From a virus (lineage: Duplodnaviria; Heunggongvirae; Uroviricota; Caudoviricetes): a stretch of 22,294 nt of DNA. The notes under the pieces were generated by a model, which was given only the letters and a program-made list of their open reading frames with translations, was not told the origin of the DNA and made no database searches. The translations under genes were made by a program, and so were the position numbers. Positions 10,616-17,167 of the stretch are shown piece after piece (positions within the stretch are counted from its first letter, which is position 1; every line of letters starts with the position of its first letter). Location: the IMG/VR virus record IMGVR_UViG_3300037333_000017, positions 1 to 22,294 of that record. One strand, given 5' to 3'.

Positions 10616-12622
10616 ATGAAAAAACTAGATAGAATGGAGATGCAACAAGACCTCCTACGAGGTAACTACGATGGAGTAGTGGGCACCCTAGACGTAGAAG
10701 TAGGAACAAGGCTGTATAATAAGAGGACATCAGCCTTATTGATAAACGGTACAACATCCGTCTATCACGAGGAGGGCATAGTCAATGTACCAGCCTCCCA
10801 AATAATATACATACCACACTCTAAAAAGAATGAGGAAGACGGAAGAGGATACGTCTTTATCAATGGAAACGGAGAGGTGGTTAGACTTAGACAACATTAT
10901 GACGGAGAGATAAAAGAGACTATTCTACCGTCAGATGTTAAATTCACAACTGTATATAGTCATGGAACACTAGACTCTGACGTCTTATATCTGACGTCAG
11001 AAAATGACGTATATGAGAGATCGCACGGATTTTTTGTGCCCAGTACAAGGGAATGCCCTATTGCGGGCATTGTAAAAAAGATAAACGACCTAGGGTATGT
11101 CGCATCTAATGCAGACGTACGCATAGACAGAGAGATAATAGGCGGTGACATAAAGTACCTTGTCGTTCTGAGAGACGAACATTCTAGGTTCAGATTATTC
11201 GTTAGACTTAAAAACGACCACTTAGAAGAGATTTTTGATACTTCTGAATTTGTAGCAAGATTCAAGGTCGGTAGAAATACCGTGGTTGAAACGCCATGTT
11301 TCAGAGCGTCCGGAATTATGTCGTATGACTCAAAAACAGTCGAGACGATAAGAACGTTCGCCGCAGAGGAACTAAAAAAGACACACCAGGAGAAACGTAT
11401 AGAGTGTGACTCGCGTATGCGCGCCGTAATCATAGGTACGACGATAATGACGATGACGTCGATGACTAGTGAGATGAGGATAGTAAGATATATTAAGAAT
11501 AAGGTTTCGTCATTCCTATCTTCCAGAAACTTCAAAACTTCTGAAATACCTTACATAAATGAGGTGATAACAAAGACGAACAACGCGTATAACCTAACTG
11601 CGGGCAAGATAGGTGAAATAAAGATTGCGCCAGCGAACGTAATCTACGAGTTACTCGTTAGCAATCCAGATGTACTGAAGGTATTCGGTATAAAAGAGAA
11701 GAAAATAACGGCTAGTCCCTTGAGCGTACCTACAGAGGACGCGAATGTATTCAAGAACACAAAGAAACTCTTAGAGACACTAGAGGAGTCCCTATTCGAA
11801 AGAGGTATCGTCATAACGCTCTTTAAAAGAAAAAAGACGCTTATCCCTAGAACGTCATTCCTGTCGTCAGACCCAACACTAGAAAGCGACGCTATGTTAG
11901 ACTTTATGATAGCCGTGGATGCCACACACAAACGCGGGGGATCATTTAGAACGGCATATACTACCGATGGACTAATAATCGAGTCGGATAACAAGTTCAT
12001 GCACTTACGCGAGTTGTCCGGAGTCTACACGCCATACGTCATAACAACGGAAGAAGATGAGATAATATCTAACCACGTTGTTAGTAACCGTACACTCATT
12101 TATACGACAAGTACGGGAAAAGACACCGTATTAAACCTACTCGACCTTGTAGACATGTCAAAAAGGAGAGTGAAAATACCTGTCTTAGTAAAGGTTGACG
12201 CGCAACCGTACGGTGGATTTGATATTCGCGTTCTAAACAGAGACGTTGTGATGACTCCTATATGTAGTAAAACTGCGAAGCCACTATCACCTGCAATGAG
12301 AGTAACACTACTGCCTGATAACACCTTAGAAGTGTCAGAAGCACATGTACCGAATAGCGAAGTATTCGATAATCTACCGGATTTCGACTATCGCTATAGC
12401 GTCATAAAGAGAAGTGGAGATACATACGCGGCGATACTTAAGAAGTTAGATGGTCCAGGGTATAATAGAGTCGTACTCAAGAATGGTAAACTAAAGTCAT
12501 TTCCAAGAAGAGTACTTAACGACATAAAGATAGTTTATAGAAGGGACGGTAATGACATTGTCCTGAATATGGAGAGCCCATACTTGCTAGACACACTAAA
12601 AGGAGATATAAATGAAATTTAA
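10616..12622 (+). CDS. Large beta-rich hypothetical protein
   Basis: 668 aa, RBS AAGGA after an A-rich leader. Many short alternating hydrophobic strands; no recognised catalytic motif. Confidence 0.75.
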   Translation: MKKLDRMEMQQDLLRGNYDGVVGTLDVEVGTRLYNKRTSALLINGTTSVYHEEGIVNVPASQIIYIPHSKKNEEDGRGYVFINGNGEVVRLRQHYDGEIKETILPSDVKFTTVYSHGTLDSDVLYLTSENDVYERSHGFFVPSTRECPIAGIVKKINDLGYVASNADVRIDREIIGGDIKYLVVLRDEHSRFRLFVRLKNDHLEEIFDTSEFVARFKVGRNTVVETPCFRASGIMSYDSKTVETIRTFAAEELKKTHQEKRIECDSRMRAVIIGTTIMTMTSMTSEMRIVRYIKNKVSSFLSSRNFKTSEIPYINEVITKTNNAYNLTAGKIGEIKIAPANVIYELLVSNPDVLKVFGIKEKKITASPLSVPTEDANVFKNTKKLLETLEESLFERGIVITLFKRKKTLIPRTSFLSSDPTLESDAMLDFMIAVDATHKRGGSFRTAYTTDGLIIESDNKFMHLRELSGVYTPYVITTEEDEIISNHVVSNRTLIYTTSTGKDTVLNLLDLVDMSKRRVKIPVLVKVDAQPYGGFDIRVLNRDVVMTPICSKTAKPLSPAMRVTLLPDNTLEVSEAHVPNSEVFDNLPDFDYRYSVIKRSGDTYAAILKKLDGPGYNRVVLKNGKLKSFPRRVLNDIKIVYRRDGNDIVLNMESPYLLDTLKGDINEI

Positions 12623-12908
12623 AAGACTGAGTGATAATAGGTTCGAATTAGATAGGGACATAAGTCCCCTAATGGATGCGACTAACGAAGCCGTGAGTAG
12701 GGCATTGAATGTAGAGATCGGTGACGGACTACCAGTGTCTATATCTATAAGGCAGTTAGTACTATATAAAATAGCCAGCGAGTTCGTAACTCTAGAGAGT
12801 GTCGTTAAAGGGATACCATATACCGTATTCATAAAACACAACGGAGAGATGCTAGAAGCAAACATCGCGCAACTACCGAATGGAGATACGGTCTACGCAA
12901 TAAACTGA
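12612..12908 (+). CDS. Hypothetical protein
   Basis: 98 aa, RBS AAGGAG, overlaps the upstream stop, followed by a terminator. Confidence 0.7.
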   Translation: MKFKRLSDNRFELDRDISPLMDATNEAVSRALNVEIGDGLPVSISIRQLVLYKIASEFVTLESVVKGIPYTVFIKHNGEMLEANIAQLPNGDTVYAIN

Positions 12909-12917
12909 GCAATAGCT

Positions 12918-12962
12918 ACACTAGGTACCGCGAGGTACCTAGTGTGTTATTGTTTTTTCTTT
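12918..12962 (+). terminator. Intrinsic terminator with GCGA (GNRA) tetraloop
   Basis: ACACTAGGTACC-GCGA-GGTACCTAGTGT is a perfect 12-bp stem, followed by GTTATTGTTTTTTCTTT. Confidence 0.85.
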
Positions 12963-13032: not shown

Positions 13033-13119
13033 GAGGTCTCCGTTACGAAAGAGGGCAAAACGTATAACTCGCTCAATATAAAGAGTGTTTCCATTGAAAA
13101 TAAATTGAAGGACAATAGA

Positions 13120-14352
13120 ATGTACGGAAATAACATAATAAAACTATTTGAAGACTATGTGGAAAACCCTATAAACTATACAAAGTTATATAAGGACCTT
13201 AAGGGTCATACGTTAAAATGGATGTATAGATCGAAAGACCATATAGAGTTTATGTCATCTAATCTCATAGGTGTACATACTGTAAAGTACACGATAGATG
13301 ATGAAAATGACTTCTTCTCTATATTCGATATAGATAAGATAAGTATAAAGAAAGATATAGATAGTCTAAAGGATATTAATCCAGCATGGAAAGTATCATC
13401 TAACCCTAGATACCTAACGGTAATGTATGTAATACATAAGGCGCTATCGGACAAAGCTAGTAAAGACTTAAAACATGACAAGCACCTACAGGAGAAATTA
13501 ATAAAAGAAATAAACCTTATATTCTCTATACAGGTCTATACTAGTTTGATGGTGACGTACTACAGATACGCACTAGATGAGAACATTGCAAGTACCGTGT
13601 TCGAAAATTTACCATATAGGTTTATTCTTAAGAAAGAGGGATCCTGGAAGAGAACGTTTGATTATTTCTCTCAGTATGTATTACCGAAAGGAACCCATGA
13701 AAAGAAGTTAGTTAGATTCCACACGAAAGACGCTATGGACGTAACTGCAGATATGCAAGGTAAAATAAGAAGTACGGTTATAGAACTAACACGAGTCGTC
13801 CATAATACGATAGACGCTCACAACGCTAGAGAGTCTAGGGGTAACCTAACGTTAAACGAAGAGGGTGAGGAGGAGTTACTAGACGTTATTAACGGAAATA
13901 AGGTCTATCATAATGCATTAACAGACATCATATATAGAGAGAATGAGTTTGTTAAGAAGGACTATGTTGGTATGATGAAAGAACTATACCCTAACCTCTA
14001 TGAGAAGGAATTACTATTCACACTATCTCACATGTCTAAGAATTACCTTAAACATAAAAAGGAGATAGATGATCTCATAGAGGACTGCCTTAATGCGAAC
14101 ATAAAATACCTATATAGAAGTAAACTCTATCCTCCTTACGATAAGAACGTTATTGACGTTATACGGTTCCTAAGAGGATTCTGGATAAACAGTAAGGTGA
14201 ACGATGAATATAACGTGAGGTTTAAGAAGAACTGTAAGTCATATGTAAGAATGGCCACAGGTAAGAAGACCGAAAGAGTCATAGCGACAGTAGTGATAGC
14301 TGTGGCGATATATTTCATGCTCATGGCTATAGATAACAGTAGAAGAAAATAA
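13120..14352 (+). CDS. Conserved chimallivirus core protein, phiKZ gp59-like (recalled as import factor Imp3)
   Basis: ATG at 13120 follows AAGGA (the track's TTG at 13105 has no RBS); 410 aa. DHIEFMSSNLIGVHTV, IN..WKVSSNP and FILKKEGSW motifs recalled from the gp59 family. It lies upstream of the gp61/62-SbcD-gp68-gp69 block. Confidence 0.65.
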   Translation: MYGNNIIKLFEDYVENPINYTKLYKDLKGHTLKWMYRSKDHIEFMSSNLIGVHTVKYTIDDENDFFSIFDIDKISIKKDIDSLKDINPAWKVSSNPRYLTVMYVIHKALSDKASKDLKHDKHLQEKLIKEINLIFSIQVYTSLMVTYYRYALDENIASTVFENLPYRFILKKEGSWKRTFDYFSQYVLPKGTHEKKLVRFHTKDAMDVTADMQGKIRSTVIELTRVVHNTIDAHNARESRGNLTLNEEGEEELLDVINGNKVYHNALTDIIYRENEFVKKDYVGMMKELYPNLYEKELLFTLSHMSKNYLKHKKEIDDLIEDCLNANIKYLYRSKLYPPYDKNVIDVIRFLRGFWINSKVNDEYNVRFKKNCKSYVRMATGKKTERVIATVVIAVAIYFMLMAIDNSRRK

Positions 14353-14397
14353 CGTCTAGTGCCGTTTTCGGCACTAGATGTGTTCTCATTTTTTTTT
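14353..14397 (+). terminator. Intrinsic terminator
   Basis: CGTCTAGTGCCG-TTTT-CGGCACTAGATG (12 bp including one G.T), then TGTTCTCA and a T9 run, immediately after the stop codon. Confidence 0.85.
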
Positions 14398-14401
14398 ACT
14401 T

Positions 14402-14413
14402 ATATATTATATA
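14402..14413 (+). promoter_or_regulatory. Candidate phage promoter motif ATATATTATATA
   Basis: An exact second copy is at 18054-18065, with one-mismatch copies at 1386-1397 and 10550-10561; all are intergenic and upstream of a gene. Confidence 0.45.
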
Positions 14414-14518
14414 TTCGGTTAAACTAGATTATGACCTTAATGGTTTGGTACTATAGCGATATGGTACGACTCTCTATATGCTTTCATGGGTGTATAGAAT
14501 AATAATAAAGGAGTAAAC

Positions 14519-15046
14519 ATGAAAAATAAAAATAAAACTAGAAAATCGACTCCGACAAAAACAACGACCATAATCCCCGTCGGAGAGGCGTACACCGACA
14601 GAGATGTGTACGTAGAGTCTCTACGTACATTGGAAAAACGCGAGACGCTTCGTCTCGCGAGACTGTTGGAAGAGTTGCTAGGAGAGGCATGCCTCTCCGC
14701 GTCAGCGCGCGCATGGAGAGGAATAAGCGCAGCGAAGGCTGCGTTCGAGAGCGCAGTTAGAGGTGATCCGCGCGCTGAATTCGTTGATATCGATGCGACG
14801 GGATCTTCCGATCCCGTCGCATCGATAAAACGTTTGAGAGAAAGCCTACAGAGAAAAGGAGATGAAAGTCTAAACAATTTGAAGAAAAAAATAGACGTTA
14901 TAGACGCTGAAACCTCAGACCCTGACACGGTAGAGCCGTGTGTACCATCCGGTACACACGAACTAAAACCTAAACCGACACGAACAGTTAATGTGGTTCG
15001 CGGCGGAGGGCTAGACCTCTCTGCCCTCCGCCGCGCGAGAACATAA
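14519..15046 (+). CDS. Hypothetical 175 aa protein encoded by palindrome-rich DNA
   Basis: Strong RBS AAGGAG 6 nt before ATG, open for 175 codons, flanked by terminator-like elements. Basic termini and a helical middle; no recognised family. Confidence 0.55.
   Translation: MKNKNKTRKSTPTKTTTIIPVGEAYTDRDVYVESLRTLEKRETLRLARLLEELLGEACLSASARAWRGISAAKAAFESAVRGDPRAEFVDIDATGSSDPVASIKRLRESLQRKGDESLNNLKKKIDVIDAETSDPDTVEPCVPSGTHELKPKPTRTVNVVRGGGLDLSALRRART
14607..15035. repeat. Cluster of perfect inverted repeats inside the 175 aa ORF
   Basis: Arms and spacers: 14607-14629 (11 bp, 1 nt); 14639-14659 (9 bp, 3 nt); 14681-14698 (9 bp, 0 nt); 14728-14743 (6 bp, 4 nt); 14788-14827 (18 bp, TTCC); 14937-14960 (10 bp, ATCC); 14999-15035 (13 bp, 11 nt). 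All were checked by hand. Confidence 0.95.
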
Positions 15047-15096
15047 CACCATACACGTACGTTTAAACGTACGTGTATGGTGTGGTCTTTTTTTTT
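15046..15096 (+). terminator. 38-bp perfect palindrome with T-tract; probable terminator between convergent genes
   Basis: ACACCATACACGTACGTTT|AAACGTACGTGTATGGTGT (15046-15083), then GGTC and a T9 run. It sits between the + strand 175 aa gene and the - strand 176 aa gene. Confidence 0.8.
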
Positions 15097-15625
15097 AGTC
15101 ATCGTATATTTCGTACGAGATATCTGTGCTCTTCACTTCCGTAGTATCATCGTCTAAGACCTCTAATAACCTCTCCTCAAATTCAGACTTAACTGTATCT
15201 GATATAGCGTCTGATGCTGCGTTTACTAATCTCTGTGACATTGTTCCTCTTCCCAACCTAGTCATAACTTCGTGTTTACTTTTTAAGCTATCGAAGTTAA
15301 CAGGTATTTTCTCTAACATTTCATGTGGCGTCTTGTGTATTATTCCGGGTATCGTGGCCACCACTACGCCATCCTTAACTATATCTACCGGAGACTTTGG
15401 ACCTCCCGCGTACGATATAAATCTCCCTATCAGGTACATGTTATCATTAGTAATAGGTACCTCACCTAAAAACACCGGTTCAAATAATTCCTTATAAACA
15501 TCATAAGGCATGCGTTTATTCGGTACTGCGGCGAGTGCTGAATATACCTTCTCTATGGTCTTTTCAGCTTGCGCGTACTCCTGTCTCTTTATCCTGTTCA
15601 CTTCTTCTTCTAACGGATTACCCAT
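15095..15625 (-). CDS. Conserved phiKZ-like hypothetical protein (gp61-like)
   Basis: 176 aa, RBS AGGAG. Y..LF.PVF.GE, ..YAGGP..PVDIV.DG.V...IP pattern recalled from the conserved reverse-strand gene pair upstream of SbcD. Confidence 0.65.
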   Translation of the reverse strand: MGNPLEEEVNRIKRQEYAQAEKTIEKVYSALAAVPNKRMPYDVYKELFEPVFLGEVPITNDNMYLIGRFISYAGGPKSPVDIVKDGVVVATIPGIIHKTPHEMLEKIPVNFDSLKSKHEVMTRLGRGTMSQRLVNAASDAISDTVKSEFEERLLEVLDDDTTEVKSTDISYEIYDD

Positions 15626-16084: not shown

Positions 16085-17167
16085 GTGAAGAAAGTAAGAA
16101 TATTTAACATAACAGACATACATTTAGGACATAATAATACCCCTACTAAAACAATAGTTAATAATATCTATACGTACTTTAAAGATAACGTTAAGTTTTT
16201 ACTCAGTGCTGACATAGTAACAATATCCGGAGATTACTTCCATAAGCTACTATCGAGTGTATCTGACGATTACAAATTAGGGATCGAGTGTTTATTGTTT
16301 ATAGCTAAGTTTTGCGATAAGCACGGAATAATACTTAGAGTACTAGAAGGAACACCATCGCACGATGTGAATCAGTTGGCAACATTTAGTAAGACACTGG
16401 AAGCATTTCAGATAACGTTAGACTTTAAGTATATCGACATTCTAACCGTAGAGTATATGGAAGCATTCGACATGCACATACTTTATGTTCCTGACGAGGT
16501 ATCCACAAATGCGGTTGAGACGCAGGATAAGATACGTGATATGATGGGCAATATGAGCCTAACGAAAGTTGACCATATTGTTATGCATGGTCAATTCCAT
16601 TATCACCTACCTATATTTTCTCAACACAGTTTTGATGAGGATTTCTTTTTAGGTATAACGGATAACTATATTGTTAATGGACATATACACATATTTAGCA
16701 CATTTAATAGGATTATTACGCCAGGCAGCTTCGATAGGCTAACACATAACGAAGAGGGTAAGAAGGGAGGCATCTTTATTTCTTACGACGGATACGGAGG
16801 AAAGGAATATATATTTATAGAGAACAAACACGCTATGTCATATGTGACGCTTAGATACAAGCATACTGAACCAGATATTATAGTAAAGGACATAATGAGC
16901 TTAAGGTTGCGTGACGGTTCACACGTAAGGGTACTGACTGAAGCTACGTCAGATAGATCAATTCGTTCAACGCTTAAGACCATGTTTCCAAACTATACAA
17001 TTAAGGTAGAGACAAGAAAGGCAGAAGAGGAGACGTCATTGACAGATACGTTAACCCTAACGTTTAAAGAGTTACATATAACAAGAGACAACATAATGTC
17101 ATTAGTTAAGAGCAGATTAGGTGATAAATTCGAGACCGTTGAGGCGGACTTATGTAAATTCATATAG
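16085..17167 (+). CDS. sbcD: SbcD/Mre11-family metallophosphoesterase nuclease (phiKZ gp65-like)
   Basis: GTG start after AAGGAAGG. All five motifs are visible: DIHLGH, SGDYFH, EGTPSHD (variant of GNHD), MHGQFH and NGHIH, followed by PGSFDRL. Confidence 0.92.
   Translation: MKKVRIFNITDIHLGHNNTPTKTIVNNIYTYFKDNVKFLLSADIVTISGDYFHKLLSSVSDDYKLGIECLLFIAKFCDKHGIILRVLEGTPSHDVNQLATFSKTLEAFQITLDFKYIDILTVEYMEAFDMHILYVPDEVSTNAVETQDKIRDMMGNMSLTKVDHIVMHGQFHYHLPIFSQHSFDEDFFLGITDNYIVNGHIHIFSTFNRIITPGSFDRLTHNEEGKKGGIFISYDGYGGKEYIFIENKHAMSYVTLRYKHTEPDIIVKDIMSLRLRDGSHVRVLTEATSDRSIRSTLKTMFPNYTIKVETRKAEEETSLTDTLTLTFKELHITRDNIMSLVKSRLGDKFETVEADLCKFI

Follow-up and report, generated by a model that had tools for sequence, protein, structure and literature searches.

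A predicted orphan gene packed with perfect palindromes in a variable slot of an uncultured phiKZ-like jumbo phage

Introduction

Inverted repeats rarely overlap with coding sequences, and to our knowledge, the mitochondrial genes of hairworms are the best-studied exception, one for which neither a mechanism nor a function has been demonstrated. For these coding palindromes, described in 2019, template switching was proposed as the source; the stems come and go, and their function is unsettled (PMC6649704). Template switching leaves characteristic signatures, namely, inversion of the spacer and homogenization of the arms, as laid out in two papers that deal with the mutations it causes in the genes of yeast and in RNA genes (PMC8604942, PMC8794818). 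A precedent of a different kind is provided by the PeSL cassettes of T4-type phages, repeated units of a promoter and a stem-loop around nonessential orphan genes in variable regions, where the cargo between conserved cassettes has been inserted, deleted, or replaced from one close relative to the next (Arbiol et al. 2010, PMC2839356). The PeSL promoters are sigma70-like and are used by the host RNA polymerase (RNAP). The early promoters of phage AR9, which belong to the virion RNAP, conform to the consensus AAATATATATTAT-(6N)-G+1, and phiKZ-type early promoters have been described likewise (PMC5312081).

Here, we analyze a 22,294-nt window (positions 1 to 22,294) of the 106,101-bp virus record IMGVR_UViG_3300037333_000017, in which a short open reading frame (ORF) is filled with perfect palindromes. 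As in the hairworm mitochondria, perfect inverted repeats reside in intact ORFs, both arms are predicted to be coding, and the arms are nearly perfect, suggesting active maintenance. The differences are the arm length (9-19 bp in the phage compared to up to 284 bp in hairworms), the host (a dsDNA jumbo phage), the carriers (fast-evolving orphans rather than conserved respiratory genes), the link of the phage trait to one promoter class, and the loop inversions, which are seen directly between phage strains. With the cases covered in the template-switching papers, the phage shares loops that are exactly reverse-complemented between near-identical genomes, multinucleotide changes confined to arms, and perfect stems, but here these features are concentrated at very high density in a few ORFs. 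Rickettsia palindromic elements (RPEs), which are cited in the hairworm paper (PMC6649704), also place palindromic DNA in open, translated ORFs; RPEs are, however, dispersed similar copies that decay over time, whereas the phage hairpins are unique and perfect. The resemblance to PeSL lies in the repeated promoter and stem-loop units around nonessential orphans in variable regions. In contrast to PeSL, the phage cassette has a phiKZ/AR9-type-looking promoter followed by a conserved transcribed leader, and palindrome-packed cargo has not been reported for PeSL (PMC2839356).

Anatomy of the locus and the variable slot

Judging from its sequence, the island corresponds to an orphan gene of 175 codons that stands alone, with a predicted promoter, ribosome-binding site (RBS), and terminator to itself (Table 1). 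A first-pass annotation of the window had listed a textbook RBS, terminator-like ends, a candidate promoter at 14402-14435, and a possible stand-alone transcript. All these elements are in place: AAAGGAG is located 5 nt upstream of the ATG, a T run follows each of the hairpins at 14352-14381 and 15046-15083, and the promoter belongs to a shared cassette with the AR9/phiKZ-type early layout. The predicted mRNA, from the promoter to the shared terminator, would be about 680 nt long. The first base of the palindrome 15046-15083 is the last base of the ORF stop codon. Other genes also end in long perfect hairpins with a T run behind them (12918-12945, 14352-14381, and the unit at 58,728-58,763), and the 14352-14381 hairpin is identical in three contigs from other assemblies, L019, L020, and L021. 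Apart from the perfect palindromes, the ORF contains weaker stems, and the GGAGAGGC arm of H3 also occurs at 14582 and 14715 so that alternative pairings are possible. An SbcD/Mre11-like nuclease gene is located two genes downstream of the island.

Table 1. Features of the hairpin island and its borders
Feature	Coordinates	Strand	Description
Upstream conserved gene	13105-14352		phrog_2921
Terminator of upstream conserved gene	14352..14398	+	13-bp stem with one mismatch, 4-nt loop, then T run
Predicted early-type promoter element	14400..14417	+	AT-rich block TTATATATTAT, 6 bases, then G
Conserved 5' leader	14418..14518	+	starts with 13-mer AAACTAGATTATG (14421-14433), ends with RBS AAAGGAG (14507-14513)
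Orphan ORF P0001, 175 codons	14519..15046	+	six perfect palindromes and weaker stems
Palindrome H1	14607..14629	.	arms 11 bp, spacer 1 nt
Palindrome H2	14639..14659	.	arms 9 bp, loop 3 nt; perfect in window
Palindrome H3	14681..14698	.	18-bp perfect palindrome (arms 9 bp), spacer 0
Longer-range stem	14702..14778	.	13 nt, 92% complementary; encloses 6-bp hairpin 14728-14743
Palindrome H4	14788..14827	.	arms 18 bp, loop TTCC (4 nt)
Palindrome H5	14937..14960	.	arms 10 bp, loop ATCC
Palindrome H6	14999..15035	.	arms 13 bp, loop 11 nt
Terminator common to two convergent genes	15046..15096	.	38-bp perfect palindrome 15046-15083 (arms 19, spacer 0), then T run
Conserved convergent gene, right border of variable slot	15095..15625	-	protein 50% identical to L001 counterpart

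The position of the gene had been called variable, and comparison with relatives bears this out. In the nearest relative, L001 (flanking proteins 85% and 50% identical), the same slot is occupied by an unrelated 147-aa ORF that carries its own perfect palindromes (arm/loop 12/5, 15/0, 10/1, and 13/1) and one 17-bp stem in which the lone imperfection is a G.U pair. In L002 (flanking gene 70% identical), the slot contains no gene at all, which implies that nothing in it is essential in cis.

Density and authenticity of the hairpins

Seven perfect inverted repeats with arms of 11, 9, 9, 18, 10, 13, and 19 bp, six of them within the ORF at 14519-15046, are found in 14607-15083 precisely as the first-pass annotation had described. 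The complete record contains 62 such repeats, and every other 500-nt stretch of it holds at most a few. The GC content previously given as 60% for 14641-14820 was measured at 0.600, compared to 0.50 for the ORF and 0.391 for the genome; in the G000 units, the stem arms have a GC content of 0.61-0.66 versus 0.42-0.46 for the remaining ORF. The proposal that the locus would stand out against a codon-preserving shuffle is borne out as well: the ORF contains six repeats with arms of at least 9 bp, compared to means of 0.03 for codon shuffles and 0.12 for synonymous shuffles (500 of each, with a maximum of one repeat in either), that is, perfect repeats occur in an intact ORF far above chance, as is characteristic of coding palindromes. 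The minimum free energy (MFE) of the ORF is -207 kcal/mol versus -147 +/- 6.5 in shuffles (z -9.2), and that of the predicted transcript (14417-15096) is -268 versus -181 +/- 6.2 (z -14.1). The statement that no other gene has a comparable density holds for the window but not genome-wide, where two further ORFs, 55,797-56,150 and 58,490-58,741, are about as structured.

The inverted repeats are distributed over the three codon phases without a clear bias (11/6/6), and the sense and antisense MFE values and G.U counts are about equal, with no consistent asymmetry. The palindromes are perfect Watson-Crick duplexes and both strands fold about alike, which fits a purely DNA-level origin and offers no strand-specific RNA signal; given this symmetry, MFE and G.U counts do not separate an RNA role from a DNA role. 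The cmscan search of Rfam 15 (E <= 1), which had been suggested earlier, yielded only generic hairpin matches (best scores of 13-26 bits compared to thresholds of 46-100), and ARAGORN predicted no tRNA or tmRNA.

The island sequence was found, a few SNPs apart, in the ENA MEGAHIT contig L019 and in the Logan contigs L020 and L021 from other runs, and three independent assemblies agree on it. Logan contigs are prone to break at these hairpins, and one contig stops just short of the 58,490 unit, a practical warning that short-k-mer assemblies break at such structures. Given this tendency, and given that translated palindromic elements look like palindromes in ORFs, an assembly artifact (a concern raised in the first-pass annotation) or the insertion of a mobile palindromic element family of the RPE or MITE-like type might be entertained, but we consider either barely credible. 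The sequence is agreed on by three independent assemblies, and the k-mers that set the loop orientations exceed arm plus loop in length, with one inverted variant (TCGC, see below) present in two independent assemblies. Furthermore, each hairpin is unique and is not repeated anywhere else in the 106 kb, and a sensitive blastn search of the unit against the genome retrieved only the unit itself and the promoter-leader cassette. No dispersed palindromic element family (RPE, REP, or MITE-like) was found at this locus.

The hairpin-rich ORF as a probable protein-coding gene

When sequences were randomized with the palindrome layout preserved, an open frame was obtained in 2 of 20,000 cases for the window ORF and in 0 of 20,000 for the L001 ORF. 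In all five hairpin ORFs tested, the annotated frame had the best codon-usage score as measured by the usage of the genome. The window and L019 alleles both consist of 175 codons, and the events between these close strains include five synonymous and three nonsynonymous ones (P = 0.03). Purifying selection is seen in the sister unit at 58,490-58,741: compared to its allele in contig L026, the protein is 57% identical with a dN/dS of 0.26 and saturated synonymous sites, and the flanks are nearly identical.

No diverged homolog of ORF 14519-15046 that could be used for dN/dS estimation was found in the protein and phage searches. In a search of 5.8 billion protein clusters, the sole match of P0001 at E <= 0.01 was P0001 itself, and an exhaustive phmmer search of 1.84 billion representatives retrieved nothing credible; its match to a 4,837-aa repetitive LRR protein was dismissed after pairwise BLASTP as a chance match to one repeat unit. 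The protein search with P0012 gave no significant match; P0001, P0012, and the other structured cargo ORFs had no match in Pfam or PHROGs; and the ESM Atlas contained nothing at 0.9 or above. Likewise, blastn and tblastn searches of the phage collection with the unit, IMG/VR scans with two neighboring proteins and the cassette pattern, and a metagenome scan with the downstream protein produced no matches. The AlphaFold2 single-sequence model of P0001 is helical and of low confidence (pLDDT 52).

The antisense frame 14437-15102 is open as well, over 221 codons, with a codon-usage score of 0.095 compared to 0.100 for the sense frame. We rejected it as a gene: its openness is a mirror effect of the in-phase palindromes, such that it repeats sense peptides where the phase coincides, it starts within the terminator and lacks an RBS, and the frame is closed in L001.

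The first-pass annotation had proposed a structured RNA that also codes or, alternatively, a noncoding RNA with a vestigial ORF. The first part of this proposal survives in the form of a probable gene whose predicted mRNA is exceptionally structured. The second, under which the ORF would be a by-product of GC-rich palindromic sequence, could appeal to the nearly equal score of the open antisense frame, to the orphan status of the protein, and to its poor structural model. It is nevertheless very improbable considering the open-frame chance of ~1e-4 given the palindrome layout, the superior codon usage of the annotated frame, the canonical RBS, the defects of the antisense ORF, the synonymous bias of the strain changes together with the sister-unit dN/dS, and the lack of a family match in Rfam.

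The promoter-leader cassette and the structure of its cargo

The 13-mer AAACTAGATTATG is present in exactly four copies in the record (14421, 57719, 58411, and 101882), and the leader shares 81% identity across 108 nt with the unit at 101,881-101,988; it can also be aligned with the L001 leader. Altogether, cassette copies were located at 14.4, 55.8, 57.7, 58.4, 101.9, and 105.7 kb. The cassette is common to L001, L028, and L032, each with a different cargo, so that, as in PeSL, repeated promoter and stem-loop cassettes surround orphan genes that are swapped among close relatives. Other matches to the cassette pattern (L023-25, L027, and L029-31) were discarded as unrelated sequences of low GC content.

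The promoter at 14400-14417 reads TTATATATTAT-ATATTC-G, and other copies read ATATAAT-(6N)-G. Measured against the AR9 consensus (PMC5312081), this is the phiKZ-type early layout, with an extended AT-rich element, six bases, and a G start, rather than the sigma70-type promoter of PeSL; a sigma70 consensus scan of 14200-15300 detected two 9-of-12 matches (14383-14410 and 14546-14574), a number that does not exceed the one in shuffles. The layout predicts a transcription start near 14417 and suggests early timing of transcription. Like the AR9 early promoters, the cassette precedes small genes with no assigned function. The comparison covers the sequence layout. Within the first 50 kb of AR9, the genes next to early promoters show no unusual structure (median z -0.3), which indicates that phiKZ-related phages do not generally require highly structured early transcripts.

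High structure follows this cassette. In codon shuffles, MFE z values were -10.5 for the window ORF, -13.6 for the L001 ORF, -11.8 for the 55,797 ORF, -9.5 for the 58,490 ORF and -7.3 for its L026 allele, -9.2 for the L028 cargo, and -9.1 for the L032 cargo. All seven of these high-structure ORFs sit behind the cassette or its variant, compared to a median z of -1.2 for the remaining ~35 small genes in that genome, many of which also lack a known family (Fisher P = 0.001). The association extends over at least three phage genomes and seven unrelated ORFs. The unstructured cargo comprises a 191-aa TraB/PrgY/GumN-like gene (z +0.3) and a 68-aa gene (z -2.5); all of the strongly structured cargo genes are orphans, and the only cargo gene assigned to a Pfam family lacks such structure.

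The two alleles of the 58,490 family have four hairpins within the ORF, as well as the terminator, in the same positions, and in the consensus fold, 8 pairs (3 in the terminator) are changed on both sides yet kept; GC3 is elevated in this family. Several other hairpins are not conserved between the two alleles, as expected if stems are stochastically gained and lost. Structure in this class of genes behind one cassette suggests selection on the mRNA that retains the stems.

Loop inversions between strains

The H4 loop is TTCC in the window and L020 and the exact reverse complement, GGAA, in L019 (Ser to Glu). The loop (12930-12933) of the terminator at 12918-12945 is GCGA or TCGC, and that of the first hairpin of the 58,490 ORF is CGAA or TTCG, depending on the allele. 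At three hairpins, then, close relatives carry loops that are exact reverse complements of each other. These inversions between near-identical strains bear the signature of template switching, which we consider their candidate source. The earlier suggestion that the gene grows by local inverted duplication is upheld to this extent, but not in its comparison with translated palindromic elements, given that the hairpins are not copies of a mobile element.

Differences between the window and L019 are concentrated in the ORF (11 of 528 sites versus 9 of 10,705 elsewhere, a 25-fold excess; P = 3e-10). In H2, both L019 and L020 have a T in place of A14645, a substitution that disrupts one pair and replaces Thr with Ser. 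In H6, L019 has four arm differences, all in synonymous third positions, which introduce three G.U and one G.G in the sense RNA. At all five arm differences, the perfect state is that of the window, which is compatible with either perfecting or decay of the arms. The changes clustered at 14929-15031 may have come from a diverged allele as a recombination patch instead of by a template switch.

Inversions show that DNA hairpins or arms interact, and in the 58,490 unit, allele divergence begins at a hairpin and stops at the terminator hairpin. Together with the 0-1 nt spacers of three palindromes and the SbcD/Mre11-like nuclease gene nearby, these observations are compatible with a DNA element, such as a cruciform or hairpin recombination hotspot for cassette exchange, a protein-binding or anchoring array, or an origin, to which the ORF would be secondary. 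This possibility, raised in part by the first-pass annotation, appears improbable. The hairpins have neither a motif nor an iteron in common and have no further copies in the genome, the cumulative GC skew that had been proposed as a check has no turning point at the locus, and the slot is empty in L002. Moreover, similar arrays are found at several loci of one genome, always within ORFs open far beyond chance and behind one promoter class. Of the hallmarks of a replication origin, neither iterons or an AT-rich unwinding element, nor a skew inflection, nor conservation in relatives was found here.

Origin and retention of the coding palindromes

The explanation that we favor, with moderate confidence, is that of a real stand-alone accessory gene with coding palindromes that derive from template switching and are kept by mRNA-level selection within the cassette class. 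Under this scenario, an uncultured phiKZ-like jumbo phage would carry a 175-aa orphan gene in a hypervariable slot, expressed from an early-type, virion-RNAP-like promoter. Its palindromes, with both arms translated, would be made, perfected, and sometimes flipped in the DNA by intramolecular template switching or an equivalent inverted-repeat-mediated inversion, and selection on the mRNA would retain the stems in the cassette expression class. The structure probably benefits this class of mRNAs, most plausibly by shielding the first transcripts from host single-strand-specific or RNA-guided nucleases or by throttling translation.

A possible but less probable account dispenses with such a benefit: template switching would generate and perfect palindromes wherever protein constraint is weak, and these fast-evolving orphan genes would tolerate functionless stems. 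The perfect Watson-Crick arms, the inverting loops, the lack of consistent strand asymmetry, the gain and loss of hairpins in the 58,490 family, and the restriction of strong structure to orphan cargo, with the Pfam-family gene unstructured, are all in line with this account, and the discussion of the hairworm paper argues in parallel for mitochondrial coding palindromes (PMC6649704). Against it, the ~35 other small genes, many of them without a family, show no such structure, and the trait follows one promoter class across genomes and unrelated ORFs. In addition, in the 58,490 family, four stems remain in place with compensatory changes despite saturated synonymous sites and a dN/dS of 0.26, and GC is enriched in arms and third codon positions.

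Implications

RNase E and RNA-targeting CRISPR are defenses that still reach nucleus-forming phages. In a bolder version of the mRNA-level reading, which we regard as speculative and rather unlikely as a whole, the earliest orphan transcripts of this nucleus-forming-type clade would be near-perfect stem-loop chains that serve as an adaptive shield against single-strand RNases and Cas13/type III CRISPR, with the stems written and repaired by template switching; alternatively, these RNAs might double as structured decoys. The shield would matter because the first mRNAs are made before the protective functions of the phage itself exist.

The cargo swapping described here shows PeSL-like cassette shuffling to operate in a phiKZ-like lineage. 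The phage locus also presents the phenomenon known from hairworm mitochondria in a tractable setting, that is, short phage genes, of which each genome offers several independent cases. Loop flips that distinguish natural alleles and the clear link to a promoter class make two questions testable: whether template switching writes and maintains stems within genes, and whether phiKZ-like phages need heavily structured first transcripts, for example, against RNase E or RNA-targeting CRISPR.

Palindrome density and coding status of the window ORF

A scan of the whole 106,101-bp record (G000) for perfect inverted repeats with arms of at least 9 bp and loops of at most 12 nt detected 62 repeats. Seven of these fall within 14607-15083 (arm/loop: 11/1, 9/3, 9/0, 18/4, 10/4, 13/11, and 19/0), a density unmatched by any other 500-nt stretch of G000. 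All elements listed in the first-pass annotation lie at the coordinates given there, and the 60% GC content reported for 14641-14820 was reproduced (0.600 vs 0.391 for the genome). Six of the seven repeats lie inside a 175-codon ORF with the ribosome-binding site AAAGGAG 5 nt upstream of the ATG; the promoter-like element proposed for this unit is present, as are its own terminators at both ends. The shuffling control suggested in that annotation placed both repeats and folding far beyond expectation: six repeats were observed vs means of 0.03 in codon shuffles and 0.12 in synonymous-codon shuffles, and the minimum free energy (MFE) of the ORF was -207 kcal/mol vs -147 +/- 6.5 in shuffles (z = -9.2). 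For the predicted transcript (14417-15096), the MFE was -268 vs -181 +/- 6.2 (z = -14.1). An Rfam search of the locus matched no family.

An assembly artifact was ruled out: three independent assemblies, L019 (79.9 kb, ENA MEGAHIT contig) and the Logan contigs L020 and L021 from other runs, carry the locus with few differences. The Logan (k=31) contigs end at or beside perfect palindromes (L020 at window position 14817, L021 at 14516, and L022 at about G000 58,381). Short-k-mer assemblies probably break up and under-report palindrome-packed loci.

When the palindrome layout was retained and its content shuffled (20,000 trials per ORF), the frame stayed open in 2 trials for the window ORF and in none for the ORF occupying the same slot in the nearest relative, L001. 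For each of five hairpin ORFs scored by genome codon usage, the annotated frame came out best. A product of 175 residues is encoded by the window allele as well as by that of L019, and the two alleles are separated by five synonymous and three non-synonymous events. In the sister unit at 58,490-58,741, comparison with the allele in contig L026 showed near-identical flanks around an ORF with 64% nucleotide and 57% protein identity, aligned gaplessly, with a dN/dS of 0.26. A 221-codon antisense ORF in the window was rejected as a mirror effect, in which in-phase palindromes are re-read as the same peptides; its start lies within a terminator, and it has no counterpart in L001. Judged from sequence, the window ORF appears to be a real orphan gene in which coding palindromes form a chain behind a putative early-type promoter.

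A variable slot between conserved genes

The record is a partial genome of an uncultured phage (CheckV estimate 36%) whose proteins match jumbo-phage PHROG families; the left neighbor of the ORF is ~24% identical to proteins from many known jumbo phages. In L001, where the flanking genes share 85% and 50% protein identity with those of the window, the slot holds a 147-codon ORF with an identical ribosome-binding site. No protein similarity between its product and the window product was detectable, and comparison with 5.8 billion protein clusters leaves both as orphans. Nevertheless, the L001 ORF is likewise dense in perfect palindromes (arm/loop: 12/5, 15/0, 10/1, and 13/1; z = -13), with an additional 17-bp stem whose sole imperfection is a G.U pair. 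In L002, a relative at 70% identity, the slot contains no gene, and gene order differs in ~50% identical relatives. L002 (ENA ERZ27262639 k141_92013, site 2160-2180) and the slot-gene carrier L019 originate from one ENA sample; therefore, phages with and without the gene coexist. Two genes downstream of the ORF, at 16085-17167, the window encodes an SbcD/Mre11-like nuclease with the phrog_100 label "subunit of palindrome specific endonuclease."

A promoter-leader cassette with structured cargo

The record contains exactly four copies of the 13-mer AAACTAGATTATG (14421, 57719, 58411, and 101882), with variants 5' of 55,797 and near 105,740. Each copy is preceded by an ATATAAT-type block, six bases, and G; in the window, this element (14400-14417) reads TTATATATTAT-ATATTC-G. 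The same layout of AT-rich block, six bases, and G characterizes the consensus of the early virion-RNAP promoters of AR9 and is described in the same paper as general among phiKZ-type early promoters (PMC5312081). If this promoter reading holds, the 13-mer would mark the transcript start. With the start at the G six bases past the AT-rich block, transcripts of the class (14421-14433, 57,719, 58,411, and 101,882) would share a ~17-nt 5' end, G-ACUAAACUAGAUUAUG. The window leader and its counterpart at 101,881-101,988 share 81% identity across 108 nt. The same cassette precedes the L001 slot ORF and, in JGI contigs L028 and L032, stands before different cargo ORFs. Such shuffling is modular and resembles that of PeSL cassettes (PMC2839356).

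Features of the slot and of cassette cargo genes (z, codon-shuffle MFE z-score)
Feature	Coordinates	Orientation	z	Description
Left neighbor, conserved gene	window 13105-14352	plus		phrog_2921
Window ORF	window 14519-15046		-10.5	
Right neighbor, conserved gene	window 15095-15625	convergent		slot boundary
L001 slot ORF			-13.6	
Third strongly structured orphan ORF	G000:C1 55,797-56,150 (L033 2498-2851)		-11.8	117 aa, GC 0.47
TraB/PrgY/GumN-like cargo gene	G000:C1 57,796-58,371 (L009 797-1372)		+0.3	191 aa, PF01963, E 5e-8
58,490 mini-unit	G000:C1 58,339-58,790 (L009 1340-1790)		-9.5 (ORF)	terminator, cassette, two leader hairpins, 83-codon ORF, 16-bp terminator stem
L026 allele of 58,490 ORF			-7.3	
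L028 cargo			-9.2	
L032 cargo			-9.1	
68-aa ORF	101,981		-2.5	

Strong structure is associated with the cassette (Fisher p = 0.001), the remaining small genes of the genome having a median z of -1.2. The window ORF belongs to a class of hyper-structured genes carried by the cassette. The 16-bp terminator stem of the 58,490 unit overlaps the ORF stop codon. The 55,797 ORF follows a cassette variant (ACATATAAT, six bases, GATCTAACTAGATTA) and shows zero differences from L026. The TraB/PrgY/GumN-like gene is the sole cargo of a known family and also the one without excess RNA structure. Genes beside annotated early promoters are unstructured in AR9 (first 50 kb; median z -0.3); therefore, the trait is one of the present clade rather than general to phiKZ-related early genes.

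Origin of the stems

Alignment of the window with L019 (11,233 bases) revealed 20 differing positions, 11 of them inside the 528-nt ORF, a 25-fold excess (p = 3e-10). In the 18-bp hairpin H4 (14788-14827), the 4-nt loop is exactly reverse-complemented, from TTCC in the window to GGAA in L019. The window holds the perfect state of H2 (14639-14659), where a single arm base differs in L019, and of H6 (14999-15035), where L019 carries four synonymous third-position arm changes, three giving G.U pairs in the sense RNA; these arm changes may represent either perfecting or decay. The ORF contains two further single changes at other positions. Loop inversion recurs in the terminator 12918-12945, which follows the gene 12612-12908 (GCGA in the window, TCGC in both of the near-identical strains L019 and L020, with unchanged 12-bp arms), and as the first difference between the 58,490 alleles of G000 and L026 (CGAA to TTCG). 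The terminator at G000:C1 57,183-57,217 (17-bp arms) has a 1-nt loop whose base is A in G000 but T in L026, consistent with palindrome inversion and indistinguishable from a point mutation. Published work (PMC8604942, PMC8794818) describes loop inversion and arm homogenization as signatures of a template switch from one inverted repeat to the other. Most likely, the stems are written and maintained by this process. The changes clustered at 14929-15031 may alternatively represent a recombination patch.

Selection on mRNA, DNA element, or by-product

We lean toward retention of the stems by selection on the mRNA. In favor of this, we counted the tie between the trait and a single promoter class (seven unrelated ORFs, at least three phage genomes), the GC enrichment of the arms (0.61-0.66 vs 0.42-0.46 in the remaining ORF sequence of the G000 units), and the raised GC3 of the 58,490 family. 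We also counted the conservation between the two 58,490 alleles, in which four in-ORF stems and the terminator hold their positions despite saturated synonymous sites, and eight pairs of the consensus fold (three in the terminator) are altered on both sides yet kept. Other observations are neutral or point the other way: the arms form perfect Watson-Crick duplexes, the antisense strand folds about as well as the sense strand, some stems were gained and lost between the 58,490 alleles, and the repeats show no clear preference for a codon phase. The main rival to mRNA selection, stems tolerated as a by-product without function, seems to us the less likely of the two. A functional DNA element, such as the origin or binding array considered in the first-pass annotation, is unlikely: the hairpins have no common motif, the GC-skew check found no inflection at the locus, the slot is dispensable (the gene is absent in L002), and one genome contains several such loci.

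Among known phenomena, those that come closest are the palindromes within coding sequence of hairworm mitochondria (PMC6649704), template-switch mutation, and the PeSL cassettes of T4-type phages; the literature searched contained no account of early genes packed with palindromes in phiKZ-like phages.
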